Shown one piece after another: positions 5,383 to 52,156 of a stretch of DNA of 64,000 nt. Each line of letters begins with the position of its first letter. The first letter of the stretch is position 1. Source of the stretch: Patescibacteria group bacterium. GTDB lineage: Bacteria > Patescibacteriota > UBA1384 > XYA2-FULL-43-10 > 1-14-0-10-43-13. Position numbers and translations under genes: made by a program. The stretch lies in assembly GCA_038078835.1 (NCBI GenBank), contig JBBTQI010000009.1, positions 3,714 to 67,713 of the forward strand, given 5' to 3'. The notes beneath the pieces were generated by a model that ran no database searches, was not told the origin of the DNA, and saw only the letters and a list, made by a program, of their open reading frames with translations.

Positions 5383-5500
5383 TTTCGTACAGCTATTTTT
5401 GCTGCTGGGTTTTTGTTTAGCCAACTCTTGACAATTTAGGGAACTGGAGTACAATATTGTCATCCGCAAGGGAGGCGGTTGTGGTTTAGGGGGTGTTGTA

Positions 5501-15923: not shown

Positions 15924-16061
15924 CAGACTCCTTTGGAGCAAGCTCCAAGTTACAAGATACAGGAACCAAACAATATCTAAATCTCAACTCTCAAGTATCC
16001 CAATTTGAGTTTTGGTTATTGTGATTTGTTTGGGATTTGTATCTTGGTGTTTGGTTATTAC

Positions 16062-21792: not shown

Positions 21793-21822
21793 AGCGGGAC
21801 GTCCCACAGGGGTCGTCCCGCT
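21793..21822 (-). terminator. Rho-independent terminator for the minus-strand gene 21856..22556
   Basis: 9-bp stem 'agcgggacg...cgtcccgct', followed on the minus strand by a T-run. Confidence 0.6.
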
Positions 21823-21855
21823 CACTGCTCGCTCCAAGTAATCGTGGCCGCCGCA

Positions 21856-22556
21856 CTAGGAGCGAGCGGCAACACTCGAGTAGGTCTGCCGCGTCCTCTC
21901 CATAGCCGCGGCGATTCTCGCCCTCTCGCGAGCGGCGGCGTCTTGCTGCGCAACGGGTCGCTCCGTCGCCTTCTTCTGCTCCCCGATGATCCCGCGGGTC
22001 TCTGCGAGGATCTCGGAGCAGCCTTGGCCGGCGCGGTCCCAGTGACCGCCGGCCAAGGCGACGCGAGCCTCGTGGAACCGCCGCCGTAGCTCTTGGTAGC
22101 GGGCGTGATTCCGGACGCCCTTCAGGGCATCCTTAGTCTTATCAAGCATCCGGAGGGCGGGCGGAATCTGCTTCTCCGCCATGCAACAGGTGCCGCGGAC
22201 AACCGAGGTGTGGCTCTCGACCTCCGTCCACTCGCTATCCTCGGCGGCGGTTCTGGCTTGCGCCAAGCTTTCGTCAAGGCGAGGCAGGAGGTCAGGGCAA
22301 ACGTGTCCCCAAGCCCTTGCCAGCCGATTTCGTGCATCCAAGGCGGCCAGAATCCGCTGATTGGCCAGCTCAATGTTGACAACGCCGAGCAAGTGCTTGA
22401 TCTCCCTGAAGCCCTCCTCTAAATCTTCCTCGACAGTCTCAATGATCTTGAGGAGGACGCTATCCTCCAGTCGAGTGCTCGGGTGGAGCCTGCCATTCAG
22501 GCGCTCGAGGAGCGCCAAGAGACCGTTGAAACCGGTGTTTGCCGCCATCATCTTCC
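21856..22556 (-). CDS. Hypothetical protein
   Basis: RBS GGAGGG before 'MMAANTG'. Charged, helical composition. Confidence 0.4.
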
Positions 22557-22698
22557 CTCCTTCAAGTCGAACAACTCGGCCCACGATCAGAGTAACATCG
22601 TTAACTCTTCGCGGCGCCAAGGATTCGACTCGGGAGAGCAATAGGTTAAAAGTCATAGCCAAAATAACTCAATATAATAGCACTATAATCTTATATTG

Positions 22699-23001
22699 TC
22701 AAGAGAAAAATTCGACAATGGCGCCGGTGACAAAGCGGATAATAAAGTAAGAAAGAACGATAATAACTATACCGATAATAACGTTAATAAAAGCCCGCTG
22801 AGCTCGCTGGGCTTGCTCATTGTTGCCACCGGCCGTGATGTAAAGAACGCCGGCATAAATGAGATAAATAAAGGCGATCAGGCCGGCTACGATCAAAAAC
22901 AGATTGGCAATTTGCGCCGCCAGCTCCTCCAGGGTCGGGGCTTCTTCCGGCCGGACGATGGTGATTAAATCCCGCAAATCTTCCGCATCAATCATAAGCA
23001 T
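22699..23001 (-). CDS. Small two-TM membrane protein (pilin/VirB2-like topology; speculative)
   Basis: 100 aa with two long hydrophobic segments separated by 'TAGGNNEQAQRAQRA'. Confidence 0.35.
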   Translation of the reverse strand: MLMIDAEDLRDLITIVRPEEAPTLEELAAQIANLFLIVAGLIAFIYLIYAGVLYITAGGNNEQAQRAQRAFINVIIGIVIIVLSYFIIRFVTGAIVEFFS

Positions 23002-23134
23002 CCTTTCAGCTCCTCCATCTTAAGTTTAGCAGGTCTTGCCAAATTTCCCGATTATGATAAGCTGGGGTGCCTCCTAGCCGGGTTTCGGCTTGGTTGGGAG
23101 CACAATCGCGTCTATCGAAAGGGAGGGAAAGAGG

Positions 23135-23842
23135 ATGCGCGCCAGCTTGCTGGTCACGGCATTTGTGTGCTTGTTGGCTGTGTGCACCGATTCGGTTTTG
23201 GCAGACCAAAGCGGCAACTTGAGTTCGCGCGGCGGTCCGTCTCCGGGCCGGCCCATTACGGTTTATGACGAGGAGAGGCGGCCAATACTCATCCTTGAGC
23301 CGGAACTGCGTGTTCGAGAAGCTGTTCCGCCGCGACGGCACCGGGCGAAGCCGCGGCCGACCGGTCAGATCAGGCGGGCCGGGGTGCCGGCGCAAAAACC
23401 AAGAGCGGCTCCGCCGCCTCGAGTGGATGTCGGCCGGATCACCGCCGAGGTGAGAGAGAGACTGCGGCAGGACGAGAGTTTCCAGCAGAACCTGGCGAAA
23501 GTGGTCAAAGACGAGCTCCTGGCCGACAACAATTTCCGGGAAACTTTGGCGGAGGCGGCAGTCGACCGGATTGTCAATCAGCTCAAATCGCCCCAAAGCG
23601 AGATCGGCCAAGCAGTGGAGAGGGCGGCGGCCCGGGCGCTTAGATCCGCTCTGCCGCAAATCAGGCCGGGGCGGGCAATTGTCCCAGTCTGGCTCTTTGC
23701 CCTCCTCGTGCTTGCTCTGCTGGCGATAGCGGTTCTCCTGGCGATGTCGGCCATCATTCCTGTCGCCTTGCGGGTGGCGATTATCGCCATCTTCGTTGTC
23801 CTGGCCGTTCTGCTTGTCTGGCAGACAGTGTTTCTGGGGTGA
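23135..23842 (+). CDS. Secreted or membrane-anchored hypothetical protein (signal peptide + C-terminal TM)
   Basis: 'MRASLLVTAFVCLLAVCTDSVLA', a Pro/Arg-rich linker, and a C-terminal hydrophobic anchor. RBS GGAGGG. Confidence 0.4.
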   Translation: MRASLLVTAFVCLLAVCTDSVLADQSGNLSSRGGPSPGRPITVYDEERRPILILEPELRVREAVPPRRHRAKPRPTGQIRRAGVPAQKPRAAPPPRVDVGRITAEVRERLRQDESFQQNLAKVVKDELLADNNFRETLAEAAVDRIVNQLKSPQSEIGQAVERAAARALRSALPQIRPGRAIVPVWLFALLVLALLAIAVLLAMSAIIPVALRVAIIAIFVVLAVLLVWQTVFLG

Positions 23843-23992
23843 CGAAGTGCATCTCCGGTTGTCCCGGCAAGTGTCGGGACAACTTTTTCTCTTGCATCAT
23901 CCGGGTGACTTGATACAATGATCTGCCGTCCCGATTCGGTTGGGACGACGTACCTTTGAAAATTCACGCAGGTAGGATGCGAGGAGGAGAGG

Positions 23993-24940
23993 ATGACCAT
24001 ACGGTCATGGCGGTTCGTTGTCACCGGTCTGGTACTTCTGAGTGGTTTTGCTGTGCGGGCGGGGGCCGAGGAGGCAGATATTCTCGCGACAACGCCTTTG
24101 CCCCCAGACAGTGCTGTCGAGGTTGTTTCTGATCAACCGCCGGTTTTGCCAACGGTTGAAGAGCGTCTGGCGCTCCTGGAGCAACAGGGAGTGGTAATCC
24201 GTCAGTTGCTTGCCGCCTCAGAGAAGCGCGAGACGGACCGAGAGCTGGCTCTGGAGGCCTCGACCCGCTGGCAGATCAGTGAGCAGATGAAAGTCGAGCG
24301 CGAGAAGCTCGAACGATTGCTTGCCGACTACATCAGCCGGGTTGATGATGCCGAGAGCCGGTTCTTAGCGGCGGCCGCTCACGATCAAGCGCAGGACAAG
24401 ATTCTGACTTACTTGAGGGTAGAGAAGGCCGCAGTCAGATATCGGCTGAGCCGCTATGAGGCCCAACAGGCCAATGCCGGTAGCCAACTTCCCCGGCAGG
24501 TTAGCTTCAGGGAGTGGGTCGGAGGTATGACGAGCGAATCCTTCGGCCAGCTTGTCCAAGCACTCGGCAAGGTCTTTGTTACTGAGGAGCGGGCCCGCGA
24601 GGTGGCGCGCGAGGAGCTTCGCCACAACGGTGAAGCAAATCAACTTCAGGCAAAGGCCGCAAGCCGGAAGCCCTTCTTGCCGCTAGGTGAAAGTGGGGAG
24701 AAGAAGGCGGTGGCAGGAGAGCCATTTTCCCGTGAGATGGTGCTGCTCTTGCTCCTGCTCTCGGGGTTATCCTGGGGCGTTTCCTATTACGCCCTCGATC
24801 CGGGGCAGGACAGGTCCGAAAAGATGCCGCCCTGGCGGCGGCAGGTACAGCAGTGGTTGGGGGAAAAGCGCAACCGGGCGGCGGCCGCCTGTGTCTCGAG
24901 CTTTCTTCTAACCATCCTCGTTCATGCCATCGCCACATAG
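23993..24940 (+). CDS. Secreted coiled-coil hypothetical protein
   Basis: Signal peptide 'MTIRSWRFVVTGLVLLSGFAVRAGA', heptad-rich middle, C-terminal TM. Confidence 0.4.
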   Translation: MTIRSWRFVVTGLVLLSGFAVRAGAEEADILATTPLPPDSAVEVVSDQPPVLPTVEERLALLEQQGVVIRQLLAASEKRETDRELALEASTRWQISEQMKVEREKLERLLADYISRVDDAESRFLAAAAHDQAQDKILTYLRVEKAAVRYRLSRYEAQQANAGSQLPRQVSFREWVGGMTSESFGQLVQALGKVFVTEERAREVAREELRHNGEANQLQAKAASRKPFLPLGESGEKKAVAGEPFSREMVLLLLLLSGLSWGVSYYALDPGQDRSEKMPPWRRQVQQWLGEKRNRAAAACVSSFLLTILVHAIAT

Positions 24941-24949
24941 GCGAACTCC

Positions 24950-24988
24950 GCCCCGTGCCGGGCCCAGTCCGGCACGGGGATTTTTTTA
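24950..24988 (+). terminator. Strong rho-independent terminator
   Basis: 'ccccgtgccgggcccagtccggcacgggg' followed by 'atttttttatt'. Confidence 0.8.
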
Positions 24989-25048
24989 TTATTACTTGGT
25001 GCTGACTTGAAAATTAATATAAGGCCATAACTTTATTTAACCAAACCC

Positions 25049-25540
25049 TTGACAATTTATGGCCAAATGCATTAAAATAGTTTAATTATCCTAAATCAGA
25101 GCTCTACTCGGTTTAGGACAGAGCCTTAAAAAGATAATTGCTTGTTCTCGGAGGGGCAAGAGTGAGATGGGAGGAACCCCGATCAGCCCGTCGGGGTGAC
25201 GGAAGATGTGATATCAATCGATAAAATAAACGGTTGCCCACATCTTCCGCCCAGCTCATTCTTGCTGCAAACATTCGGAAATAAAAAAAGCAAGAAGAAA
25301 TCAGCCCTAAACCACAAAGGGTTCAGGGCAAGGAGGGAGCAAAAAGACGTCTTTTGCTAGATAAAAATCTAGTAAGGGATGTTACAACCTCCGTCGAAAG
25401 ACGGATCTTGCAACTCCGCTTATGGGCGTAAGTTGATGTGACCGGGCAATAATTAAAATAATTTGTTCCCGACCAGTTCACAAATCACTTGCGTCCTACA
25501 AAAACCCTGCTTAAGAAATTAAACAGGGTTTTTGTTTTTG
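25049..25540 (+). ncRNA. Candidate ~450-nt structured ncRNA or long leader (sigma70-like promoter to intrinsic terminator, no ORF)
   Basis: TTGACA at 25049, then 17 bp, then 'ttaaaat'. Several hairpins follow: 'ggaagatgtg...cacatcttcc', 'ccccga...tcgggg', and 'agcaaaaagacgtcttttgct'. It ends in the terminator 'aaccctgcttaagaaattaaacagggtttttgttttt' (25499-25538). Confidence 0.35.
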
Positions 25541-25629
25541 GATAAGTCACCCCTCGAGACATTGGCGCTGGTTCCCGGTTGGGATAGAGTGGAGAGCATA
25601 GCGCAACGCGCTCAGAAAGAGGGGGGACA

Positions 25630-25966
25630 ATGTCATGTATTCTGATGCTCGACGACGACCCCAACCAGATCGATATCCTTGGCCTTATCTTTGAGGGTCA
25701 AGGCCACAAAGCTTTTCTTGCCTTTAGTCCGGAAAGGGCGATCGAGATCATCGGGGCGGGGGGGGGTTGAGGGCGCCATCCTCGATTATTGCTGTCCTTA
25801 CGTCGGGGATGGCCTTAAGGTCGCCCGCCGGCTGGTCGAATGCGGTGTGCCGGCGGAGCGCATCCGCATTGTCACCGGCAGTGACGACACCGGATTACAA
25901 ACCTGCGGCTTCATCGTTATGCGAAAGCCGGTTGACATCAGCCAACTTCTGGCGGTCTTCAAATGA
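25630..25966 (+). pseudogene. Single-domain response regulator (CheY-like receiver) split by a frameshift in a 9-G homopolymer
   Basis: Frame 1 reads 'MSCILMLDDDPNQIDILGLIFEGQGHKAFLAFSPERAIEIIGAGGG*'. Frame 2 continues 'VEGAILDYCCPYVGDGLKVARRL...RIVTGSDD...IVMRKPVDISQL'. Deleting one G in the tract at 25729-25737 restores a ~110-aa receiver. Confidence 0.55.
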
Positions 25967-26041
25967 CCGCCCCTGACAGGGTGTCCCGGGGTCCTTTCGC
26001 CTCGGGACACCGTTCATTTAGTGGAAGGATTACAGACGGAG

Positions 26042-26428
26042 ATGAGACAAACTATCGGTCTTTTGGCCGTGGACAGAAGTGATTGTGTCCTGTTCGTTAA
26101 GAAACAGAAATGGTGGATTCTTCCCGGTGGTAAGCCAGAGGGTGGAGAATCGGAGGAGGAATGTCTCCGGCGGGAGATCGGCGAGGAATTGCCCGGCGTG
26201 ACAGTCTCGGACGCAACGAGACTTGGCAGCGTTTGCGGTGTTTCTCCCATCACCCGGAGTGATATTGAACTTGTTGTTTATGGCGGCAAGATCATCGGGC
26301 CGGTTCGCCCGGCCGCCGAGATACAGGAGGCGCGGTGGGTTCCGTTAGATCGTGTTGATGAGTACCATCTTTCCGACCTGACAAGGGCGGCAATTGGTCG
26401 GTTTCTGCTCAGCCGACAAGATAGCTGA
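26042..26428 (+). CDS. NUDIX hydrolase
   Basis: 'LPGGKPEGGESEEECLRREIGEELPG' is the Nudix box. Confidence 0.65.
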   Translation: MRQTIGLLAVDRSDCVLFVKKQKWWILPGGKPEGGESEEECLRREIGEELPGVTVSDATRLGSVCGVSPITRSDIELVVYGGKIIGPVRPAAEIQEARWVPLDRVDEYHLSDLTRAAIGRFLLSRQDS

Positions 26429-26522
26429 TGAACATAGGCCCCGCGGCGTGTTCGCCCGGGGCTTTTCGTATTTTGGCAGGGTTGATAGAATGAGCAAGTG
26501 TATAGAGCATAGGACATAGAGC

Positions 26523-28643
26523 ATGGGTGATGATTTGTTGGAAGATCTAAATGATCAGCAAAAAGAGGCGGTTCTGGCAACCGAGGGGCCTGTTTTGGTG
26601 CTCGCAGGCGCTGGAAGCGGGAAAACAAAAGCGTTAACTCACCGGCTGGCTTATCTGGTCAAGGAGAAGGGTGTCTCGCCCTTCAATATTTTGGCAGTGA
26701 CTTTTACTAATAAAGCAGCTGGGGAGATGGCGTCAAGAGTGAGTACGCTCTTGGCCCAAGGCCAAAGGCCCAAGGTCCAAGGCCAGGATGACAGTTTTGT
26801 CTCCGACCCTCGGCCTCAATCCTTCGGCCTCCGATTGCCCTGGCTGGGCACTTTTCACTCCGTCTGCGTCCGGATTTTACGGCGGGAAGCACAACACATT
26901 GGCTACGAGCGCAATTTCACCATTTACGACGATGGCGATCAGCTCTCGATTATCAAGCGGATAATGAAAGATTACGACATCAACCCCAAGCAATTCGCGC
27001 CCCAGGCGGTCAGATCCTTTATCTCCGGCGCCAAGAATGAACTCCTTGATGCCGAGGGTTATAAGAAGTATGCTAATTCGCCGATGGAGGCGGTGGCCGG
27101 CCGGGTTTTTGACCGCTACGAACAGTATCTTAAAGACGCCAACGCGATGGATTTTGACGACCTCATTGTTCAATGCGTCCGCCTCTTCGAGGAGAATCCG
27201 GCGGTGCTTAAGGAGTATCAGGATCGTTTTAGGTACATTTTAATCGACGAGTATCAGGACACCAATCAGGCGCAATACATCTGGGTCAAGATGCTGGCCA
27301 AAAAACACCAAAACATTATGGTCGTGGGGGATGATTTTCAGTCGATTTATTCTTGGCGCGGCGCAAATTTTCGCAACATCTTAAACTTCAACCGCGATTA
27401 TCCCCGGGCTAAGGTAATTAAGTTGGAGCAGAACTATCGCTCGACCCGGACAATTCTCTCGGCGGCGAATGAGGTGATCAAATATAACCGTCAGCGGACC
27501 GATAAAAATCTCTGGACGGAGAATGCGGAGGGCTTGCCAATCACGGTCTATGAAGCCTTGAACGAGAAGGATGAGGCGGAGTTCGTGGCGATGGAAATAA
27601 TGTCGCTGATGAGGCGGAATCAAAAAATAAGTGTCATTTCTCGTCCCGATAGTCATCGGGACGAGAAATCCCGTCAATCCCAAGAGAGATGGGATCTCTC
27701 GTCGCAGGCTCCTCGAGATGACTATAGCCAAGGTCTTGGCTATAGTCATTTTACCGTTCTCTATCGCACCAATGCTCAATCGCGGGCGATCGAGGAGGCT
27801 CTGCTGCGTTTTAATATTCCCTACCGCGTTGTTGGCGGCATTCGTTTTTATGAGCGCAAAGAGATAAAGGATATCGTGTCGTACCTTCGCTTTATTCTAA
27901 ATCCAAATGATAGCGAGGCGTTTGAACGGATTGTAAATATGCCGCTAAGAGGAATTGGCGAAGCAACGATAGCGAAGATGCGCCAATTTCCAATTTCCGA
28001 TTTTCAATTTCCAAATAATGTCCAAATTTCAAATCCCAAAATCCAAAAATTTTTCGTCATGATGCAGGAGATGAGGGAGTATGCGCAAGATATTGATCTG
28101 CCGACCTTGATTGAACATGTGGCGGTAAAATCGGGCTACAAGAACTATTTACTCGACGGTACCCCGGAGGGCGAGGGAAGGTGGGAAAATATTCTTGAGT
28201 TAACGAGCGTAGCTCGGTCACTAACTCAAGAAGTCGAAGGTCAAAGGCTTAAGGCCGAAAGCGATTATAATGATAGCCTTTGGCCTTTGGCCTTTGGCCT
28301 TGAGCTCTTCTTGGAGCGGGTGGCGTTGGTGCAGGATGCGGATAATATCGACAGAAGTGCGGACGCGGTGACACTTATGACTCTCCACTCGGCCAAGGGC
28401 CTGGAGTTTCCGGTAGTCTTTATTGTCGGGGCCGAGGAGGGTCTCTTTCCCCACTCCCGGGCACTTATGGATGAGAGTGAGATGGAGGAGGAGCGGCGGC
28501 TTTGCTACGTTGGCATCACCCGGGCGATGCGGCGGCTCTACCTTATCCATGCCTCCGAGCGCACCTACTTTGGCCGCTTGCAGTGGAACCCCAAATCCCG
28601 CTTTATCGAATCCATCCCCGAGTGTTTGATTGATAAAATATGA
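26523..28643 (+). CDS. uvrD: ATP-dependent DNA helicase UvrD/PcrA, with several low-complexity in-frame insertions
   Basis: Walker A 'AGAGSGKTKALTHR', and 'VLYRTNAQSRAIEEAL'. Inserted tandem repeats 'ggccaaagg'xN lie at 26754-26788, with the inverse 'cctttggcc'xN at 28275-28305. A 'ccaaat/ccaaaa' repeat lies at 27983-28050. Confidence 0.9.
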   Translation: MGDDLLEDLNDQQKEAVLATEGPVLVLAGAGSGKTKALTHRLAYLVKEKGVSPFNILAVTFTNKAAGEMASRVSTLLAQGQRPKVQGQDDSFVSDPRPQSFGLRLPWLGTFHSVCVRILRREAQHIGYERNFTIYDDGDQLSIIKRIMKDYDINPKQFAPQAVRSFISGAKNELLDAEGYKKYANSPMEAVAGRVFDRYEQYLKDANAMDFDDLIVQCVRLFEENPAVLKEYQDRFRYILIDEYQDTNQAQYIWVKMLAKKHQNIMVVGDDFQSIYSWRGANFRNILNFNRDYPRAKVIKLEQNYRSTRTILSAANEVIKYNRQRTDKNLWTENAEGLPITVYEALNEKDEAEFVAMEIMSLMRRNQKISVISRPDSHRDEKSRQSQERWDLSSQAPRDDYSQGLGYSHFTVLYRTNAQSRAIEEALLRFNIPYRVVGGIRFYERKEIKDIVSYLRFILNPNDSEAFERIVNMPLRGIGEATIAKMRQFPISDFQFPNNVQISNPKIQKFFVMMQEMREYAQDIDLPTLIEHVAVKSGYKNYLLDGTPEGEGRWENILELTSVARSLTQEVEGQRLKAESDYNDSLWPLAFGLELFLERVALVQDADNIDRSADAVTLMTLHSAKGLEFPVVFIVGAEEGLFPHSRALMDESEMEEERRLCYVGITRAMRRLYLIHASERTYFGRLQWNPKSRFIESIPECLIDKI

Positions 28644-31285: not shown

Positions 31286-32287
31286 ATGGCAGACTTAACC
31301 GACAAAAAGCAACTAATTCGTTTTTTGCAACAGCACGGGCTTTATACCAAGAAGAAGCTGGGGCAGAATTTTTTAGTTGATAGGGCTGCGCTCGATAAGA
31401 TTGTCGATGCCGCCGGATTATTAAAAGACGATTGTGTTATCGAGATTGGGCCGGGGTTGGGGGTTTTGACAGAGGAGTTAGTGAAGAGAGCTGGAAAAGT
31501 AGTGGCGGTGGAGCTGGACGCGGCTCTGGCCGAGATTTTAGAAGTTAGATTTTCGAAGTTAGAAGAAAATCAAAAACCTCTAAAATCTAAAATCGATATT
31601 CTAAAATCTGATATTCTTCGTATCAACCTTAGTGAAACCACCAAGGATTGTTCGAGTTATAAAGTCGTTGCCAATATTCCTTACTACATCACATCGAAAA
31701 TCCTACGCTTTTTCTTGGAGGCGGAGAAGAAACCGGAATTGATAGTATTGCTAACGCAAAAAGAGGTAGCCGAAAGAATAGTAGCTAAGCCGGGCGAGAT
31801 GTCGATTCTGTCAGTCTCGGTTCAATACTACGGCCGGCCGGAGATTATAGATATTGTGCCTGAAACATCGTTCTTTCCCATGCCGGAAGTTGATAGTGCA
31901 ATATTAAAAATATCGAATATCCATACCCCCTCTAACTCCCCCTTACTAAGGGGGAGAAATCTAAATAATAGTTCCTTCCTTAAAATAGGGAATATTCCCT
32001 CTGATTCCTCCCCTAAGATAGGGGAGGTTAGGTGGGGTATGGAAAATACCGATGTAAAGGAATTTTTCCGCTGTATTCATATCGGTTTTTCGTCAAGGCG
32101 AAAAACATTACTAAATAACTTATCTGCCGGTTACCATCTGGATAAAAAAACAACGCTTGATATACTGGAAAAAGTGGGCTTGACGGAGAGGACAAGAGCG
32201 CAGGAACTATCAATCGGGAAATGGCAGGAGTTATGCCGCCAGTTGCCGGATTGGGACAGGAAAGACAATGAACGAAGCGGGAGCTAG
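31286..32287 (+). CDS. rsmA: 16S rRNA (adenine1518/1519-N6)-dimethyltransferase RsmA/KsgA, with in-frame repeat and palindrome insertions
   Basis: 'KKKLGQNFLVD...IEIGPGLGVLTEEL'. Insert 1 (31586-31625) is a 'tctaaaatc' repeat. Insert 2 (~31925-32045) carries three palindromes and encodes '...SPLLRGRN...SDSSPKIGEVRWGM'. Confidence 0.9.
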   Translation: MADLTDKKQLIRFLQQHGLYTKKKLGQNFLVDRAALDKIVDAAGLLKDDCVIEIGPGLGVLTEELVKRAGKVVAVELDAALAEILEVRFSKLEENQKPLKSKIDILKSDILRINLSETTKDCSSYKVVANIPYYITSKILRFFLEAEKKPELIVLLTQKEVAERIVAKPGEMSILSVSVQYYGRPEIIDIVPETSFFPMPEVDSAILKISNIHTPSNSPLLRGRNLNNSSFLKIGNIPSDSSPKIGEVRWGMENTDVKEFFRCIHIGFSSRRKTLLNNLSAGYHLDKKTTLDILEKVGLTERTRAQELSIGKWQELCRQLPDWDRKDNERSGS

Positions 32288-37914: not shown

Positions 37915-38224
37915 CCTTGAGCTTTGATCTTTAAATTTTCTTTTGACTTTGTTTTTGAACTTTGGGATAATGTTATTGGCCAGCGAAACGATCCTGCCGC
38001 AAGACAAGGGCCGCTGGCATTTGTGCCGGCAAATGATCTGTTGCAAAGAGCCTTGTGCTTAGTTTGGACAGAGTGCCGCCACCGTCTAAAAAGTGTTTTC
38101 TCACGTTTGAGTCCTGCCTACCTGGCCTTACTGAAAGAGCCAGGTGTAACAAGCAAGCCAATGCATTGTTAGGAGTTTGCGAACTTTTAACACATCACGG
38201 ACGGACGGGATCAACTTGGGTTCC

Positions 38225-38589: not shown

Positions 38590-38773
38590 AGAATTATTCA
38601 AGCTACCACGGATTGGTTAAACAGCATTGCAATTACAAAAAAAGACGGTATTTCAACTGGCTCCTTGGATAAAAAACTAGTGCTTGGTATACTGGTATCG
38701 GTTGGATTGAATGACAAAACTCGGGCGCAGGAATTGCCGGTTAACAAGTGGGAGCAACTTTGCGAAAGATTTT
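38590..38773 (+). pseudogene. Diverged duplicate of the ksgA 3' end (remnant/displaced copy)
   Basis: It translates to '...SLDKKLVLGILVSVGLNDKTRAQELPVNKWEQLCERF*'. The ksgA C-terminus is 'HLDKKTTLDILEKVGLTERTRAQELSIGKWQELCRQL'. Nucleotide identity is roughly 60-65%. Confidence 0.5.
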
Positions 38774-38774
38774 A

Positions 38775-38892
38775 GAATCTAGATTTTGGATTTTAGAATT
38801 AATATTGAGAGCAGAATTAAATGATTAATTCCTCACTCTAGCTTCACTCTAAAATCTATATTCTAACATCTAAAATCTAACAGGTGAGGGGA
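38775..38892. repeat. MITE-like inverted-repeat element built from 'gattttagaat'/'ctaaaatct' units
   Basis: The left arm 'gattttagaatctagattttggattttagaatt' and right arm 'ctctaaaatctatattctaacatctaaaatctaac' are near reverse complements. The same unit occurs in-frame in ksgA (31586-31625). Confidence 0.45.
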
Positions 38893-40391: not shown

Positions 40392-41189
40392 ATGAATGAG
40401 AGATCAGGCACACTTTTTATCGTTGCCACGCCGATCGGCAACTTGGAGGACATTACGCTTCGGGCGATTCGGGTCTTGCAGGATGTTGACCTGATTGCTT
40501 GCGAGGATACGCGAGTGACGCGGCATCTCTTAGATCACTTTGAGATCAAAACACCAACAGTGTCATATTTTCAGCACTCTAAATTATCGAAGATCGACTA
40601 CCTGATATCGGAGCTGCGGTCGGGCAAAGATATCGCCTTAATTTCCGATGCCGGCACACCGGCAATCAGCGATCCGGGACAGGAGTTAATTGCTAACATT
40701 CGTCAGGCTTGTCATTCTGAACCCTTCGGCCTTACTCAGGGTAAACTCCGTGAAGAATCTAGGTCGCCAAAGGCGACCGTAAATAAGAGTGCGGCTTCGC
40801 CTAGATCCTTCGCTAACGCTCAGGATGACATCAGGGTGGTGCCCATCCCCGGCCCGTCGGCTTTGACGGCGGCGGCGAGTGTCTCCGGTATGATCGAGAA
40901 AGAGTTTTACTTTGCCGGGTTTTTGCCCAAGAAAAAGGGCCGGCAGACAGAATTAAAGAAACTATCGAAGCTCGATGTGCCGATTATAATGTACGAATCA
41001 ACTTTAAGGTTAGAGCGAACGCTTGCCGATATTAAAACGTATTTTGATGACAAGACCGAAGTCTTTGTTGCTCGAGAAATGACCAAAATGTTTGAAGAGT
41101 ATTGGGGCGGGAAGATAGATGAAGTCTTAAACGATCTCAAGAGTCACAAGTTAAAAGGTGAGATTGTGTTGGTGGTCAAGAAATTATAA
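40392..41189 (+). CDS. rsmI: 16S rRNA (cytidine1402-2'-O)-methyltransferase RsmI, with a ~40-aa in-frame insertion
   Basis: 'GTLFIVATPIGNLEDITLRAIRVLQDVDLIACEDTR...' and 'VVPIPGPSALTAA'. The insertion 'CHSEPFGLTQGKLREESRSPKATVNKSAASPRSFANAQDDIR' at ~40710-40835 contains the hairpin 'ctaggtcgccaaaggcgacc'. Confidence 0.8.
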   Translation: MNERSGTLFIVATPIGNLEDITLRAIRVLQDVDLIACEDTRVTRHLLDHFEIKTPTVSYFQHSKLSKIDYLISELRSGKDIALISDAGTPAISDPGQELIANIRQACHSEPFGLTQGKLREESRSPKATVNKSAASPRSFANAQDDIRVVPIPGPSALTAAASVSGMIEKEFYFAGFLPKKKGRQTELKKLSKLDVPIIMYESTLRLERTLADIKTYFDDKTEVFVAREMTKMFEEYWGGKIDEVLNDLKSHKLKGEIVLVVKKL

Positions 41190-41223
41190 GTCGTATAGGA
41201 CATATAAGACGTATAGGGTGTAT

Positions 41224-41742
41224 ATGTACAAAGATTTGAAAACTTACCAGAATACAGTAATCATCCATGACTTTACCGTTGAGTTTTGCCGGCGATATGT
41301 TGATTACAAATCCCGAACGAAAGATCAGATGGAGCAGGCGGCCAGATCCGGCAAACAGAACATTACGGAGGGGTGTGAAGCTTCCCGAACTTCCAAAAAA
41401 ACCGAGTTAAAGCTGCTTGGTGTTGCTTATGCCTCGCTGAAAGAGTTGCTGGAAGATTATGAGGATTATCTTCGCCAGCATAATTTAGCTCTTTGGGTCA
41501 AAGATTCAGAGCCAGCCAAGGCTGTCCGAGCCTTGGCATATACGACTCATAAGTCTTATATGACCTATAAGTCGTATATGGAGAAACCGGAAGAAGCTTG
41601 CAACGCGATGATATGTCTCATAAGCCAGACCACTTACATGCTGAGTAACCAAATTAAATCTCTAAAGGAGGCGTTTTTACAGGAAGGTGGTTTTACAGAA
41701 AACCTCTACAAAGAGCGTTCGGAAAGGCGAGGGCGAAAATAA
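41224..41742 (+). CDS. Four-helix-bundle protein (23S rRNA intervening-sequence protein family), flanked and interrupted by 'tataagNcgtata' repeats
   Basis: '...TYQNTVIIHDFTVEFCRRY...ARSGKQNITEGCEASRTSK...' resembles PF05635. The repeats lie at 41176-41220, 41536-41581 and 41741-41780. Confidence 0.55.
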   Translation: MYKDLKTYQNTVIIHDFTVEFCRRYVDYKSRTKDQMEQAARSGKQNITEGCEASRTSKKTELKLLGVAYASLKELLEDYEDYLRQHNLALWVKDSEPAKAVRALAYTTHKSYMTYKSYMEKPEEACNAMICLISQTTYMLSNQIKSLKEAFLQEGGFTENLYKERSERRGRK

Positions 41743-41781
41743 GACCTATAAGACATATACGTCCTATAAGTCGTATAATTA

Positions 41782-42444
41782 GTGGAAAAAAGTATGGTTA
41801 CAAATTTAATCGACATCTTAGCCAACTTTGTGGTTAACACCATCGACATGATTGGCTACTTTGGCATTTTTATTCTGATGCTGGTGGATTCGGCCGGGAT
41901 TCCTATGCCCTCGGAAGTTATAATGCCCTTTTCGGGCTTTCTGGTGGCCGACGGCCGGATGAATTTTTGGGCAGTTGTCCTGATTGGGACACTTGGCAAT
42001 CTTGTTGGCTCCCTCTTGGCGTATTGGGTTGGCTGCAAGGGCGGGCGACCGTTGATTGAAAGGTACGGCAAGTATATTTTGATCTCCAAACACGACCTTG
42101 ACTTGGCTGACCGCTGGTTTAAGAACTACGGTAACGCGACAACTTTTTTCGGCCGCGTCTTGCCGATTGTCCGGACATACATCTCCTTTCCGGCTGGCAT
42201 CGCCCGGATGAATATTTGGAAATTCTCGCTCTACACCTTTTTGGGCGCCCTGCCCTGGTGTGCCGCCCTGACATATGCCGGAGTCAAGATGGGTAGTAAT
42301 TGGGAGTTAATCCGCGAGAAACTCCATAACTTTGATCTCTTAATCGCTGTCCTCATCATCGCCTTTGTCGCACTCTGCGTCTGGCGACACATCAACACGA
42401 AAAATCGTGCAAAAAACCTTGACAGAAGCGATAAAACAGTGTAA
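41782..42444 (+). CDS. DedA/SNARE-associated family membrane protein
   Basis: 'FGIFILMLVDSAGIPMPSEVIMPFSGFLV...FFGRVLPIVRTYISFPAG' is the DedA signature. Confidence 0.8.
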   Translation: MEKSMVTNLIDILANFVVNTIDMIGYFGIFILMLVDSAGIPMPSEVIMPFSGFLVADGRMNFWAVVLIGTLGNLVGSLLAYWVGCKGGRPLIERYGKYILISKHDLDLADRWFKNYGNATTFFGRVLPIVRTYISFPAGIARMNIWKFSLYTFLGALPWCAALTYAGVKMGSNWELIREKLHNFDLLIAVLIIAFVALCVWRHINTKNRAKNLDRSDKTV

Positions 42445-43980: not shown

Positions 43981-45549
43981 ATGAGCAAGAAATATTATAT
44001 TACAACCCCAATTTATTACGTTAATGATGTCCCGCACGTCGGTCATGCTTACACCACTATTGCGGCGGATGTTTTGGCGCGGTATCACCGGGAAAAAGGC
44101 GAGGAGGTCTTTTTTTTGACCGGCACGGACGAGCATGGGGCCAAGATTGCCGAGGCGGCGGAGAAGGCCGGCAAAGAGCCTAAGGCTTTTGTCGATGAAC
44201 TGGCGCCGAAGTTCCAAGAGGTTTGGAAGAAATTAAATATTAATTATTCCGAATTTTTTAGAACGACCAATCCCGAGCACGAGAGGCTGGTGCAGGAGTT
44301 TATCGGGCGGGTTAATAAGGCCGGTTACATCGAGAAACGGCAATACACCGGACTCTATTGCATTGCCTGCGAGCGGTATTATCGCGAGGATGAGTTAATC
44401 GACGGCAAGTGTCCAGATCACAAGCGCGAGCTCGTCAGGCAATCAGAGGAAAATTATTTCTTTCTTTTATCCAAATTTGGAGATCAATTACTGGAAAAGA
44501 TCGAATCTGGTGAGATGGAGATCGGGCCGGAGACGCGCAAGAATGAGATCGTCAGCAAGATAAAACTGGGTCTGGAGGATATCAGTATTTCCAGAGCTAA
44601 TGTTAAGTGGGGCATTCCTTTTCCCGGAGACGAATCTCAAACTATTTATGTCTGGTTCGATGCACTGCTAAATTATTGGACGGCGACGAAGATCTACGGC
44701 CAAGATAAGGGGGACAGTCCCCAGGCTGCAAAGGGGACAGTCCCCGGACCGGAATGGCCGGCGGATTTGCACTTGATGGCCAAGGACATTTTGTGGTTTC
44801 ATGCCGTGATTTGGCCGGCGATGCTCCTTGCGGCCGGTGAGGCTGTGCCTAAAAAGGTCTTTGCTCACGGCTTCTTCACTATCAACGGTCAAAAGATGAG
44901 CAAGACACTGGGTAATGTCATTAACCCCAACGAAGTCGTCGACAAATTCGGCGCCGATGCCGTTCGCTACGCCCTTCTGCGCGAATTCCCCTTTGGCGAA
45001 GACGGCGATATCTCGGTGGAGAAGATCGGCGAGCGCCATAAAGAGCTGGCGGATACCTTGGGGAATTTACTTCAACGTACTGTCGTGATGATTAATAAAT
45101 ATCAAGTCCATACCACCTCTAGCCCCTCCTACCCTAGGAGGGGAAATGGGGAGATTGACCCAACCCATTCTTCCCTCCCTAAGATAGGTAGTCTATCTTC
45201 CGATTCCTCCCCTAAGATAGGGGAGGCTAGGTGGGGTATGAGTATTAACTTAGATATTGAATCATCGCAATTTTCTCGCGCTTTGGAGAAGATCATGACT
45301 TTTGCGGCGAAGCAGAACCAATTTATTAATGAGAAAGCGCCGTGGGTTTTAGCCAAAGAAGGCAAAACGAATGAAATTAAAGAGGTTTTAAGTGCAGTTT
45401 ATGGTAACCTTATGATAATATCGGAACTTTTCATACCCTTCATGCCCGAGACGGCTAAAAAGATGAAACAGCAGTTGGAATCATTGAAACCCGAGCCGTT
45501 ATTCCCCAGAATCGACTTAGATAAAACACAGATGATGAAAGCAGATTAA
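43981..45549 (+). CDS. metG: Methionyl-tRNA synthetase (short form), with a ~45-aa in-frame palindromic insertion
   Basis: 'PIYYVNDVPHVGHAYTT' (HIGH) and 'KMSKTLGNV' (KMSKS). The insertion at ~45115-45245 encodes 'SSPSYPRRGNGEIDPTHSSLPKIGSLSSDSSPKIGEARWGM'. Its 41 nt at 45201-45241 are nearly identical to ksgA 32000-32040. Confidence 0.9.
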   Translation: MSKKYYITTPIYYVNDVPHVGHAYTTIAADVLARYHREKGEEVFFLTGTDEHGAKIAEAAEKAGKEPKAFVDELAPKFQEVWKKLNINYSEFFRTTNPEHERLVQEFIGRVNKAGYIEKRQYTGLYCIACERYYREDELIDGKCPDHKRELVRQSEENYFFLLSKFGDQLLEKIESGEMEIGPETRKNEIVSKIKLGLEDISISRANVKWGIPFPGDESQTIYVWFDALLNYWTATKIYGQDKGDSPQAAKGTVPGPEWPADLHLMAKDILWFHAVIWPAMLLAAGEAVPKKVFAHGFFTINGQKMSKTLGNVINPNEVVDKFGADAVRYALLREFPFGEDGDISVEKIGERHKELADTLGNLLQRTVVMINKYQVHTTSSPSYPRRGNGEIDPTHSSLPKIGSLSSDSSPKIGEARWGMSINLDIESSQFSRALEKIMTFAAKQNQFINEKAPWVLAKEGKTNEIKEVLSAVYGNLMIISELFIPFMPETAKKMKQQLESLKPEPLFPRIDLDKTQMMKAD

Positions 45550-49681: not shown

Positions 49682-52156
49682 ATGAAGAACAATGAATCTA
49701 AAAACATCTCTCTCTCGATCTCCGGAATGCACTGCTCTTCCTGCGCGGGCATCATTGAGAGAGCGCTTAAAAAGACGCCGGGAGTAAAATCGGCCAATGT
49801 TAACTTTGCGGCCGAAAAAGCCCTTATCCACCTCAACGAAAAAGGCGCTTCTCCCCTAGATCTTATTGGCGCTGTGAAAAAAGCCGGCTACAAGGCCCAG
49901 CTTATTGACAGAAATGATACCGAGCATGAATCAGCTAAGCGTCAAAGAGAGACTGTTGCTCTCTGGAAAAAGTTCCGCTTCAGTTTCACGCTAAGCCTCC
50001 CTATGCTCTACTTTATGCTGCTTGATTTTTTTAAGTGGCTGCCGGGCGCCGAGCTGTTGCCGCCCTATTTTGGCGTTATTTCCTTTCTTCTGGCTACACC
50101 GGTCCAATTCATCGTCGGCGCCGGTTTCTATAAAGGGATGTGGTCAAGTCTTCGTATGAAGACATTTAATATGGATTCCCTGATTGCTATTGGTACTTCG
50201 ACGGCTTATCTCTACAGTTTGGTTAATTTCTTTATATTTATGGCGCAGAACGGAACATTGCTCGGTTTGGCCGGAGAAAAGATTCCCGAACTTTACTTTG
50301 AAACTGCCGCTTTTCTCATAACCTTTGTTGGGCTTGGCAAATGGTTGGAGGCGCGGGCAAAGGGCCGAACATCGGAAGCGATCAAGAAATTAATGGGGTT
50401 GCAGGCTAAGACGGCTCGTGTTATTCGGAATGGTGTGACCTCGGATATTCCAATCGACGAAGTTGTAACCGGCGATATTATTCTGGTTCGCCCCGGTGAG
50501 AAAATCCCGGTTGACGGTAAGATCGTCAAGGGCTCATCTGCCATTGATGAGTCAATGATTACTGGCGAATCCTTGCCGGTTGAGAAAAATGTTGGTGATG
50601 GTGTTGTCGGTGCTACAATTAACAAAACCGGCTCATTCGAATTTGAAGCCACTCGTGTCGGTTCGGAAACGACTTTGGCTCAGATCATTCGCCTGATTGA
50701 AGAAGCCCAGGGTTCCAAGGCGCCAATTCAAGCGTTTGCCGACCGCATCTCGGCTTACTTTGTGCCAATTGTGATCGCATTAGCCATCTTGACATTTATC
50801 GTTTGGTTTTTGATACTTGGTGAAAGTTTGTCTTTCGCCCTTATGGCTTTCACTGCCGTCATTGTTATAGCCTGTCCCTGCGCTTTGGGCCTGGCAACAC
50901 CGACAGCAATTATGGTTGGCACCGGCAAGGGCGCCGAGCATGGCATTCTTGTTAAGGGCGGCGAACCGCTTGAAAAAGCCTGCAAGATAAACACAGTAGT
51001 TTTTGATAAAACCGGAACATTGACCAATGGTAAACCGGTTGTGACTGATATTTTGACTCTGAGCGATGTGGATGAAGATGAAGTTTTAGCAATTGCGGCC
51101 AGTCTGGAAAAATCCTCAGAACATCCTTTGGCTGAGGCAATTTACACTTATGCCAATAAAGAGTCCATCGCCCTGGAAGATGTCGTCAATTTCAAAGCAA
51201 TCCCCGGCCATGGAGTCGAGGGCAATATTGGCAAGACTAAATATTATTTTGGTAACCGGCGGCTTATTGAAACGATTGGGCTGGATACTCAGCTTCAAGT
51301 TTCAAGTTTCAAGCTTCAAGAACTAGAGGAGCAGGGTAAGACTGCCATGATTCTGGCGACGAAAGAAAAAATTGTCGGCATCATCGCCGTCGCCGATACA
51401 GTTAAAGAAACTTCCAAGGAAGCTGTGGCTAAATTACAAGCAAGGGGCATTACTGTCTATATGATCACCGGCGACAATGAACGCACTGCTAAAGCCATTG
51501 CCAAGGAGGTTGGCATTACTAACGTCCTGGCAGAAGTTCTACCCAAAGATAAAGCCGCTGAAGTCAAAAGGCTTCAGAATGACCAGCCGCCGGGAGACAA
51601 TAACCAAACAAAGACATCTGGCAATTTGAGAATTGGAACTCGGAATTTATTTGGTTTTTGGAGTTTGGTATTTGGTGTTTCCACAACTCGTCAAAAACGA
51701 GTTGTGGCCATGGTTGGCGACGGTATTAATGATGCTCCCGCTCTGGCTCAGGCCGATCTGGGCATTGCCATGGGTAGCGGCACGGATGTAGCTATGGAAA
51801 CGGGCGGCATTGTTATCATTAAAAATGACCTAAATGATGTCGTAAATGCTATTCAGTTGTCCATGGAAACAATGAGTAAAATCAAGCAAAATATGTTCTT
51901 TGCTCTCTTCTATAATGTTGCCGGCATTCCGATTGCCGCCCGGGTTTTTGCCGGCGCCGGCCTGATTTTAAAACCGGAGTTGGCCGGCTTGGCTATGGCT
52001 CTCTCCTCTGTCTCGGTTGTAACCAACTCTCTTTTGCTTCGCCGCTATCAGCCAAACCGCAGAAACTGGCTTTCCCTCATTGCTCCCCCTGTAATGATCG
52101 TGTTCTTCTTCCTTCTTTTTCTTGAATTTGCCCGCTTGAGCACGGAGATGAAGTAA
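49682..52156 (+). CDS. copA: Copper-translocating P1B-type ATPase CopA, with a ~40-aa in-frame insertion
   Basis: 'GMHCSSCAG' (HMA), 'CPC', 'DKTGTLT' and '[10 protein letters not shown]'. The insertion '[41 protein letters not shown]' at ~51585-51700 contains the perfect palindrome 'ccacaactcgtcaaaaacgagttgtgg' and a 'tttgg' repeat. There is also a 'caagtttcaagtttcaagcttcaag' tandem at 51294-51320. Confidence 0.92.

Follow-up and report, generated by a model that had tools for sequence, protein, structure and literature searches.

What is encoded between an open reading frame (ORF) of 315 amino acids (aa) without assigned function (23993–24940) and the receiver-domain gene that follows it in contig JBBTQI010000009.1 of a Patescibacteria group bacterium? 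The initial annotation of this interval, positions 24941–25632 of the 64-kb stretch analysed here (the window), had proposed either a non-coding RNA (ncRNA) of ~450 nt or a long structured leader. The ncRNA proposal was supported by the comparative analysis, in that the element is conserved in 23 further sequences and shows compensatory variation in both of its structured domains, and of the two options a stand-alone ncRNA is favoured by the presence of its own promoters and terminators and by the varying identity of the genes downstream. That a real, conserved and structured ncRNA gene of a new family lies here is, in our judgement, very probable. We also consider it likely that the stretch 25085–25540 of the + strand is a stand-alone gene for a structured ncRNA of ~456 nt, the product of an undescribed family in the Saccharibacteria-related lineage of the Candidate Phyla Radiation (CPR)/Patescibacteria. 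The gene is delimited by the following signals.

25049–25054, + strand: −35 box TTGACA of the RNA's own promoter (promoter scan).
25073–25078, + strand: −10 box TAAAAT (promoter scan).
25085–25540, + strand: predicted ncRNA transcript, ~456 nt (z-score of the minimum free energy (MFE), homology and strand-specific model score).
25500–25539, + strand: intrinsic terminator AAAAACCCUG-C-UUAA-GAAA-UUAA-A-CAGGGUUUUU followed by a U-run (sequence and MFE).

The near-consensus promoter, of the sigma-70 type, that had been claimed at 25049–25078 and the intrinsic terminator were both borne out, the spacer measuring 18 nt and the terminator (A-tract, hairpin and U-tract) lying at 25500–25539. The promoter (TTGACA-18-TAAAAT) has 11 of 12 consensus matches and ranks first among the only three promoter-like sites of 24000–27000. 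The 5′ end of the predicted transcript was derived from the −10 box (start near 25085) and the 3′ end from the terminator, which a simple terminator scan missed because of a C/A mismatch in its stem. The 315-aa ORF upstream has a terminator of its own at 24951–24979, and the receiver-domain gene begins, as had been stated, about 90 nt beyond the element (ATG at 25630/25633). The MFE of the ncRNA stretch was −180.7 kcal/mol compared with −113.8 ± 6.7 for dinucleotide shuffles (z = −10.05 for the + strand); for the − strand the z-score was −7.9. The GC content of the region is 0.41–0.46 against about 0.60 in the flanks, and the element is single-copy in the window by repeat search and by the covariance model R1 described below. 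The statement that the region contains no ORF holds in the sense that none is conserved, but mechanical ORFs of 44–54 aa can be drawn on both strands. The sequence was 100% identical in four assemblies from the same population, which therefore carry no comparative information.

Comparative information came from more distant relatives. With the window sequence as query, nhmmer detected copies of the element upstream of pcrA in five loci from genomes (L005, L006, L007, L008 and L014; E-values of 1e-14 to 1e-27). The most conserved block in the alignment of these five loci, YYTYCNYCCAGCTCRTTCYTRC, was used as a motif to scan Joint Genome Institute (JGI) metagenome contigs, and a profile search sorted true homologues from chance matches to the motif. 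True homologues were obtained from L026, L027, L042/L044, L049, L055, L056, L057, L076, L086, L089, L093 and L101, and the scan also recovered L035 (= L005) and L054 (= L014); nhmmer E-values across all of the homologue searches ran from 1e-14 to 1e-102. Seven further PcrA relatives (56–65% identity) were then fetched without reference to any RNA motif, and in six of these seven contigs the RNA was present 2.3–6.5 kb upstream of pcrA. The seventh, L139, had no RNA copy within 9 kb and a different upstream gene order. Taken over the PcrA-relative loci whose upstream flank measures about 700 nt or more, 11 of 12 contain the RNA, L139 being the exception; in L009, which has only 744 nt of upstream flank, presence cannot be judged. 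Of ten motif matches in viral contigs none was a real copy, and model R1, run on 122 other loci, matched only homologues that were already known.

The family so assembled comprises 24 non-identical sequences including that of the window, the other 23 coming from metagenomes and metagenome-assembled genomes (MAGs), with a core of 318–559 nt and a full length of roughly 400–700 nt. Conservation at the nucleotide level extends over genomes whose PcrA proteins are only 57–69% identical. The PcrA-like helicase of the window (26523–28643) has an identical protein on Hainich groundwater metagenome contigs, including those from 0.1-µm filter fractions, and its closest relatives in the species genomes of GTDB are from MAGs of Candidatus Saccharibacteria or Patescibacteria (59–65% identity).

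The transcription signals are conserved along with the RNA. A promoter of the form TTGACA-17/18-TAnAAT was found by regular expression at the equivalent place in 21 of the 22 homologues for which upstream sequence was available, and inspection by eye of the remaining one (L014) revealed TTGACA-17-TAAGAT. A U-run ends all 20 core sequences, in most cases preceded by a hairpin; the terminator loops of L014, L049 and L089 carry a long low-complexity insertion, and in L014 only the 5′ arm is seen. Across the family, long low-complexity hairpin insertions made up of GGTTAG/CTAACC-like units are located in the leaders of L008 (~90–185), L055 (reverse strand) and L093, in the terminator loops of L089 and L049, and at 3860–4040 of L014. 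They look as if they were a lineage-specific expansion segment or a tiny repeat element targeting those spots.

Compensatory change was examined separately for the two domains of the RNA. The 3′ one, domain 2, has the following elements in the window.

25332–25417, + strand: helix H3, GGAG (25332–25335) and GCAA (25339–25342) paired with UUGC (25408–25411) and CUCC (25414–25417), closing H4 and H5.
25346–25383, + strand: helix H4, GACGUCUUUUGCUAGAU / AUCUAGUAAGGGAUGUU, 17 bp with an AAAA loop (covariation).
25390–25405, + strand: hairpin H5, UCCGUC-GAAA-GACGGA (MFE).
25424–25496, + strand: long irregular hairpin H6, GGGCGUAAGUUGAUGUGACCGGG .. CCCGACCAGUUCACAAAUCACUUGCGUCC, whose tip UUAAAAUAAU is AU-rich and which has a conserved bulge of 4 nt (covariation and model R1).

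In a plain MAFFT alignment of domain 2 from 20 sequences, 95.5% of 695 cells were paired, compared with 83.5 ± 0.8% when the partners were shuffled, and 26 of 35 pairs showed two-sided changes against 12.4 in the shuffles. None of 500 shuffles reached any of the observed measures, and controls in which the partner strand was slid by 1–3 columns were 36–52% paired. RNAalifold, given the same alignment, predicted H4 and H6. Compensatory changes were present at 12 of the 15 pairs scored in H4 and at 14 of the 20 pairs in H6, where 96–100% of cells were paired. The palindrome AGCAAAAAGACGUCUUUUGCU, to which attention had been drawn earlier, does exist in the window, but the pairing that is conserved is a different one, namely that of GACGUCUUUUGCUAGAU with AUCUAGUAAGGGAUGUU in H4 (25346–25383). 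A hairpin at the position of H5 also occurs in the homologues but is variable. Since the partner strands of H3, and of H2 in domain 1, lie at variable distances, these two helices were checked sequence by sequence. The H3 duplex was present in 20 of 20 sequences, in such forms as GUAAGAGG/CCUCUUAC, GUGAGAG/CUCUCAC, GUAGGAAG/CUUCCUAC, AAGAGAU/GUCUCUU (with one G-U pair), AUGAGGG/CCCUCAU and GAAGC/GCUUC. When the sequences were folded singly, H3 closing H4 and H5, followed by H6 (the topology [[][]][]), was obtained in 11 of 20, and the other nine differed only around the weak H5; the topology recurs in most of the individual folds. Domain 2 is thus predicted to fold as a junction in which H3 closes H4 and H5, followed by H6 and the terminator, and this arrangement is kept by compensatory substitutions.

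For domain 2, a covariance model (R1, covering H4 and H6) was derived from the 19 homologues, with the window sequence left out. It matched 25319–25502 of the + strand over the full length of the model (137.3 bits, E = 1.8e-30), and this was its sole match in the 64 kb. The distal part of H6 consists of CCGRG, an AU-rich loop, CYCG, a 4-nt A-rich bulge and then G. L124 (1060–1212), L125 (3728–3887) and L138 (3619–3702) each have a further R1 match, weaker than the first, immediately upstream of domain 2, and an equivalent H6-like sequence is visible in L126 (~5390–5440). The second H6 module (CCGRG, AU-rich loop, CYCGAUAAG) located between H2 and H3 in this subgroup is an internal domain duplication. 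A promoter-like site (TTGATG-18-AATAAT, 9 of 12 matches) lies at 25433–25462, inside the conserved H6; it is probably incidental, the same bases being under constraint from the RNA structure and a terminator following.

The 5′ domain of the core, domain 1, and the linker to domain 2 contain the following.

25160–25261, + strand: domain 1, a three-way junction closed by H1 (RNAalifold, model R2 and pair counts).
25160–25171 with 25250–25261, + strand: helix H1, GAGUGAGAUGGG / CCCAGCUCAUUC, including an invariant A/G mismatch.
25176–25197, + strand: helix H1a, ACCCCGAU / GUCGGGGU, with the C-rich apical loop CAGCCC (covariation).
25200–25249, + strand: helix H1b, basal part CGGAAGAUGUG / CACAUCUUCCG, distal part CAAUCG / CGGUUG, AU-rich loop AUAAAAUAAA.
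25261–25294, + strand: hairpin H2, CUUGCU / AGCAAG, followed by an A-rich linker (per-sequence inspection).
25304–25329, + strand: linker hairpin GCCCU.AACC..GGUU.AGGGC (MFE only); the linker varies in length and sequence in the homologues.

The hairpins listed in the initial annotation are present in the window, GGAAGAUGUG/CACAUCUUCC at 25201–25210/25239–25248 and CCCCGA/UCGGGG at 25177–25182/25192–25197, as is CUAGAU..AUCUAG. For domain 1, MAFFT and RNAalifold shifted H1a and H1b by one column, and a covariance model (R2) was therefore built and used to re-align 24 sequences. In this model-fitted alignment 92.1% of cells were paired, compared with 82.0% in shuffles and 45–56% in slid controls, and double changes occurred at 24 of 38 pairs against 12.9, with none of 500 shuffles reaching the observed values. 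Compensatory changes were found at all 7 pairs of H1a, the stem sequence of which varies between homologues, and at 8 of 9 basal pairs of H1b, on which the individual folds agree. Folded singly, 19 of 20 sequences gave a junction of H1a and H1b closed by H1; in six of these 19, H1b carries an additional branch. The conserved AU-rich tip of H1b reads UUUAAAAUAAA across the family, and a C-rich apical loop of H1a (CYCCC, 6–11 nt) is present in 19 of 20 sequences; in L007 H1a is missing through a deletion. The partner strand of H2 was found in 20 of 20 sequences, with the variants CUUGCY/RGCAAG, CCUACC/AGUAGG (in which 5 of 6 positions pair), CCUGCU/AGCAGG and CUAGCU/AGCUAG. H2 cannot form together with a competing extension of H1 (UURGC/GCYAA), and R-Y covariation at the position common to the two is seen for each of them. 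Model R2, which describes the GAGYGAGAUGG .. CCAGCUCRUUC helix enclosing H1a and H1b, matched 25152–25272 (88.7 bits, E = 5.5e-23), the window sequence having been a member of its seed alignment; over the sequences it scored 44–123 bits on the + strand compared with 26–42 bits on the reverse complement. The predicted fold of domain 1 is therefore a junction, closed by H1, of H1a with its C-rich loop and H1b with its AU-rich tip, and it too is kept by compensatory substitutions.

These results bear directly on whether the conserved entity is an RNA at all, as opposed to a DNA-level element (a repeat or miniature inverted-repeat transposable element (MITE), a protein-binding site or an origin-like AT-rich region) or a gene for a small protein. 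The region is indeed AT-richer than its flanks and contains perfect palindromes, and replication genes (dnaX, dnaB and pcrA) flank it in several genomes. However, the compensatory changes include G-U pairs and the model scores are strand-asymmetric, a promoter and a terminator are conserved around the element, the cumulative GC skew makes no turn here, and the element is single-copy in the window, where the repeat search gave no sign of a MITE or a repetitive extragenic palindromic (REP) element. With regard to coding, the longest ORFs in 20 homologues are of 18–96 aa without a common frame, and indel lengths in the alignment are not divisible by three. Small ORFs were considered and rejected: those that open at the conserved AUGGG of H1 run for 2 to ~20 codons and are unrelated in length, and tblastn searches with the four ORFs of the window returned short fragments in several frames and on both strands, a pattern that reflects nucleotide, not coding, conservation. 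We regard the probability of a DNA element or a small-protein gene as almost negligible.

Could the RNA then belong to a family that is already known? At gathering score, none of the 4227 models of Rfam 15 matched in the 64-kb window, and nothing was matched in 11 homologous loci (146 kb); the Rfam scan and the examination of relatives that had been suggested for this locus thus gave, respectively, no known family and conservation with strong compensatory changes in both domains. In E-value mode (E ≤ 10), the stretch 24850–25750 gave chance-level matches only, to microRNA (miRNA) models and terminator-driven small RNA (sRNA) models (E ≥ 0.07), the best of these being miRNA models at E of about 0.07–0.11, and the RNA of L124 had no Rfam match at E ≤ 1. 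ARAGORN found no tRNA or transfer-messenger RNA (tmRNA) in the window and no tmRNA in 21 homologous loci. The literature on ncRNAs of Saccharibacteria, Patescibacteria and CPR yielded no description of the element in a search of 8 million full-text papers, a collection that leaves out most subscription journals; a 50-genome ncRNA survey included no CPR genome, and neither the main paper on Patescibacteria genetics nor a recent perspective mentions ncRNAs. As judged by sequence and covariance models, the RNA family is new and without a detectable relative.

A very divergent housekeeping RNA, that is an RNase P RNA, a tmRNA or a signal recognition particle (SRP) RNA missed by the standard models, was considered, since a size of about 400–700 nt and a lineage-wide presence are typical of RNase P RNA and tmRNA, and no such RNA is found elsewhere in the 64-kb window. 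For RNase P RNA there was no Rfam match (RNaseP_bact_a or RNaseP_bact_b) in the window, in the 11 loci or in the L124 RNA; of its universally conserved P4 blocks, CR-I, searched for as the regular expression GNAANNUCNGNG, was absent from 20 of 20 sequences, and CR-V (ACNNNANNNNGNNUA) gave one isolated match, in L086, the other 19 having none. A tmRNA was rejected, as ARAGORN and Rfam were negative and the 5′ and 3′ ends are unpaired in every fold; there is no acceptor-like stem formed by the two ends, no CCA-proximal T-arm and no tag ORF. SRP RNA of the small or the Bacillus type, which is marked by a domain IV helix that has a GNRA tetraloop and conserved loops of symmetric and asymmetric form, had no Rfam match; for all of these RNAs this holds across 24850–25750 even at E ≤ 10. 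In the cultured oral Saccharibacterium strain KC1 the Prokaryotic Genome Annotation Pipeline (PGAP) annotates just 2 ncRNAs (PMC8830319); these are standard ncRNAs, and the standard models are thus able to detect such RNAs in this group. We conclude that a disguised housekeeping RNA is extremely unlikely.

Another candidate was an analogue of 6S or Ms1 RNA, which would bind RNA polymerase by letting single-stranded UAAAAU-type loops mimic an open −10 element. Like 6S and Ms1, the new RNA is a stand-alone, lineage-wide ncRNA with a strong promoter and is expected to be abundant; Rfam found no 6S RNA, either in the window or in the homologous loci, and two conserved loops contain UUAAAAUA, similar to the −10 box of the family (TAAAAT/TAYAAT). 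Against this, the loop resemblance is weak and the RNA is two to three times the length of 6S, which is a rod of ~180–200 nt. Its consensus has neither a rod-like stem closing the 5′ and 3′ ends nor a central bubble, and consists instead of two junction domains and a hairpin. A 6S-like role therefore appears very unlikely.

Among the large structured RNAs of bacteria, OLE, ROOL, GOLLD, HEARO, raiA and IMES were considered, and none reached the gathering threshold in Rfam 15. ROOL and GOLLD are often located in prophages or near tRNAs. The new RNA shares with them and with the raiA motif that it is a long, structured, covarying intergenic element without an ORF and of orphan function; it differs from them in having no Rfam match, in being chromosomal and syntenic with dnaB..pcrA with no copy in the viral-contig motif scan, and in its fold of two three-way junctions and a long hairpin. 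The raiA-motif RNA is likewise chromosomal (PMC10861870). OLE RNA (~600 nt, Bacillota), which as far as is known is the RNA of a ribonucleoprotein (RNP) complex (PMC9723947; PMC12054373), resembles it in being large, multi-domain and conserved, with near-invariant stretches between covarying helices, and in being confined to one lineage. The two have no match in sequence or structure (Rfam), however, and whereas OLE lies in an operon with its partner oapA, the new RNA has no adjacent gene for a partner protein, has its own promoter and terminator, and occurs in a CPR host phylum.

Most relatives differ from the window copy in what precedes the core, where a leader of 90–260 nt follows the promoter. 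This leader has a conserved start (AUCACUUUAAAAACUGAAUA, which may resemble the boxA antitermination signal of rRNA leaders), a hairpin presenting GGAGGG, and a terminator-like hairpin with a U-run directly before the core. The 5′ arm of the leader terminator is always CCUCC-like and complementary to GGAGGG, the motif being present in 17 homologues. In 13 leaders, those from which the hairpin was correctly extracted (L026 and L124–L126 were left out), the complementary runs were of 5–10 nt with duplex energies of −9 to −17 kcal/mol; the 3′ terminators of these RNAs gave, by comparison, 3–6 nt and −2 to −7 kcal/mol. In L101, L125 and L126 the MFE structure of the leader itself pairs GGAGGG with the CCUCC-type terminator arm, that is, it adopts the antiterminator alternative, and in L124–L126 the fold chooses a GGAGGG/CCUUCC antiterminator pairing. 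The corresponding part of the window copy is as follows.

25089–25118, + strand: 5′ hairpin UCCUAAAUC..GGUUUAGGA, lineage-specific and within the variable leader (MFE); it is not kept in the homologues, whose leaders differ.
25149–25158, + strand: G-rich motif CGGAGGGGCA, equivalent to the GGAGGG leader motif of the family (shared with 17 homologue leaders).

The window copy thus keeps the GGAGGGG motif (25149–25158) but has no internal terminator, and its core should therefore be made constitutively. In many relatives, although not in the window, synthesis of the full-length RNA would be gated by this 5′ attenuator, in which the GGAGGG hairpin may compete with the CCUCC-type terminator arm. 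As in known terminator/antiterminator leaders, an upstream G-rich segment of most relatives can pair with the 5′ arm of the leader terminator and the two states are mutually exclusive; unlike in those leaders, the attenuator here would control a non-coding core and not a coding gene, and it is absent from the window copy.

A further candidate role was that of a trans antisense regulator of the RsaE/RoxS type, the C-rich H1a loop of the RNA (CYCCC) pairing with the Shine-Dalgarno regions of mRNAs and the remainder serving as a scaffold. Pairing of a C-rich loop with the Shine-Dalgarno sequence is an established mechanism in sRNAs of Firmicutes, and the new RNA shares with RsaE and RoxS an apical C-rich loop, its own promoter and an intrinsic terminator. 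The loop, of 6–11 nt over a covarying stem, occurs in 19 of 20 homologues, and the family leader has the complementary GGAGGG. RsaE and RoxS, however, are of ~100–115 nt with several C-rich motifs, whereas here there is a single such loop in 400–700 nt, other parts of the RNA are more strongly conserved, L007 lacks H1a altogether, and Rfam gave no match. Antisense pairing as the main role consequently seems to us quite unlikely.

More weight has to be given to a role in cis, in which the element would be a long leader or attenuator of a receiver–NUDIX–pcrA operon that senses a signal and sets read-through at 25500–25539. In all 15 loci that have both on the available sequence, the RNA is upstream of pcrA and co-oriented with it, and regulated termination is part of the biology of the family, many relatives having an attenuator-like leader. 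The gene next downstream, however, is not conserved: it is the receiver-domain gene in the window and L006, a gene for an HD-domain protein in L007, L014 and L123, one for a protein of 118–136 aa without assigned function in L055, L056 and L101, and in L005/L035 and L089 it is pcrA. In L123, L125, L137, L006 and L042 the RNA and pcrA are separated by genes on the opposite strand, the distance between the two ranges from 0.03 to 6.5 kb, and separate consensus promoters follow the RNA in L008, L055 and L089. The attenuator of the relatives is upstream of the conserved core, so that it is the core that is controlled and not a coding gene, and a length of 400–700 nt with two junction domains far exceeds that of known riboswitches. 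A broader gene order recurs around the RNA (dnaX-dnaB-rlmN-like ... RNA ... pcrA ... G5-domain protein - ksgA - Nramp), which makes conserved gene order the best reading of the link to pcrA. A riboswitch or cis leader is disfavoured on these grounds, namely that the downstream genes differ, that opposite-strand genes intervene and that the core is bounded by a promoter and mostly by a terminator. As the main function of the element, control of the downstream operon in cis is in our view unlikely, while an effect on the pcrA operon as a side effect of read-through is likely.

Several points nevertheless weigh against a stand-alone gene acting in trans, or temper the evidence for it. In L005 the start of pcrA is ~30 nt past the terminator of the RNA (688–718), which in this locus and its equivalent L035 leaves no room for a promoter, and the promoter scan found no sigma-70-like site between 25540 and 26523 in the window. 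The conserved co-orientation with pcrA suggests at least some coupling in cis, and expression of the downstream gene is probably fed in part by terminator read-through in the window and L005, to judge from the arrangement of signals. No protein gene other than pcrA is consistently adjacent, and the neighbourhood search found no protein partner; clustering of the neighbours recovered only PcrA, a TrmB-like protein, the HD-domain protein and one 118–136-aa family, none of them universal, and Pfam gave nothing for nine downstream ORFs. The pair counts of domain 1 come from a model-fitted alignment, which is biased towards the structure, and H1 is nearly invariant and therefore uninformative for covariation. 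Because the sequences sampled are related by descent, significance is overstated by the shuffle controls, and the slid controls offer the fairer comparison. The ends of the transcript were inferred from sequence signals alone. Finally, the metagenome scan demanded an exact match to a 22-nt degenerate motif, and the sampled range is one of metagenomes and MAGs; the taxonomic range of the family is a lower bound.

On balance, we think it probable that the ncRNA acts primarily in trans and not as a cis leader. Because the promoter is close to consensus, high-level transcription is to be expected, and the ncRNA would then be abundantly transcribed and might act in trans as a protein-binding RNP scaffold in a housekeeping or regulatory role. 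Proteins may dock at the two AU-rich hairpin tips and at the H6 module, which is duplicated in some lineages; such a repeated module is what a protein-binding site would be expected to show. The C-rich H1a loop would be a possible contact for G-rich (Shine-Dalgarno-like) sequences, and read-through of the 3′ terminator may also contribute to expression of receiver, NUDIX and pcrA. The RNP-scaffold mechanism specifically, although we prefer it to the other mechanisms considered, can be put forward only tentatively, as one that is rather less probable than its absence. Approaching but not reaching an even prospect is a broader view, in which the RNA would be the founding example of a new class of large (about 400–700 nt), multi-domain RNAs, part of the core gene set of a Saccharibacteria-related lineage with genomes of about 1 Mb, acting as an RNP subunit or conceivably a ribozyme in a housekeeping process, with synthesis gated by GGAGGG/CCUCC in many species. 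The novelty claimed here is that of the RNA family.

The sequence of the RNA is conserved more strongly than those of the neighbouring proteins; nearly all members of the lineage that were sampled possess the RNA, and its promoter is a consensus one. Together, size, conservation, near-universal presence and promoter strength are the hallmark of a function important to the cell. The genomes of CPR/Patescibacteria are drastically reduced, and their ncRNAs are almost wholly unexplored. Large structured bacterial RNAs with orphan function are rare, amounting to a handful of classes, and each one that has been solved gave unexpected biochemistry; if the broader view is true, the new class would be comparable in standing to OLE, ROOL or GOLLD. 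The family offers a new Rfam entry and an aid to the annotation of CPR genomes, a concrete target for the genetic tools of Saccharibacteria, and a clean example of an attenuator placed over a non-coding RNA and not over a coding gene.

The genes on either side of the RNA in the window have peculiarities of their own. In the assembly, nine consecutive G residues (G9) at 25758–25766 break the receiver-domain gene (25630–25966) into two frames. Removal of one G gave an ORF of 111 aa that matched Pfam Response_reg from end to end (E = 3.9e-6; 27.4 bits, the cut-off being 30.2 bits), and the run was identical in four independent assemblies. The frameshift could mean that the gene is a pseudogene, that the tract is subject to slippage or phase variation, or that the homopolymer carries a systematic error. 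Upstream of the RNA, the block 21800–24940 encodes proteins without Pfam matches and a T4SS-pilin-like protein (Pfam; identical contigs). This block interrupts the dnaB/rlmN..RNA arrangement of the relatives, which is consistent with the term 'island' used in the initial annotation.

Repeats were also found elsewhere in the window. The stretch 59700–62800 holds some 20 diverged repeats in tandem, each of ~150 nt (50 aa), with the conserved motifs LYAG..G...GD.EVW.WNG..W..IGG, which from their sequence resemble protein repeats of the propeller type; no more than short ORFs are listed for this stretch, and the gene may be broken up, or else very long and frameshifted. A repeat of 70 nt (84% identity) is located at 31972–32041 and 45171–45240, within the large ORFs 31286–32287 and 43981–45549, and contains the inverted-repeat blocks TTCCCTCCCTAAGATAGG..CCTAAGATAGGGGAGG. 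Short intergenic repeats of a T/G-rich (TTTGG) type and a TCTAAAATCT type lie at 1968–2016, 16005–16053, 37916–37964 and 51626–51674, and also at 31578–31609, 38767–38797 and 38847–38878. Arrays of a 9-nt unit (ATAAGNCNT / TATAAGACG-like) at 41177–41224, 41540–41578 and 41730–41786 flank and overlap the ORF 41158–41742 and look like iterons or operator sites.

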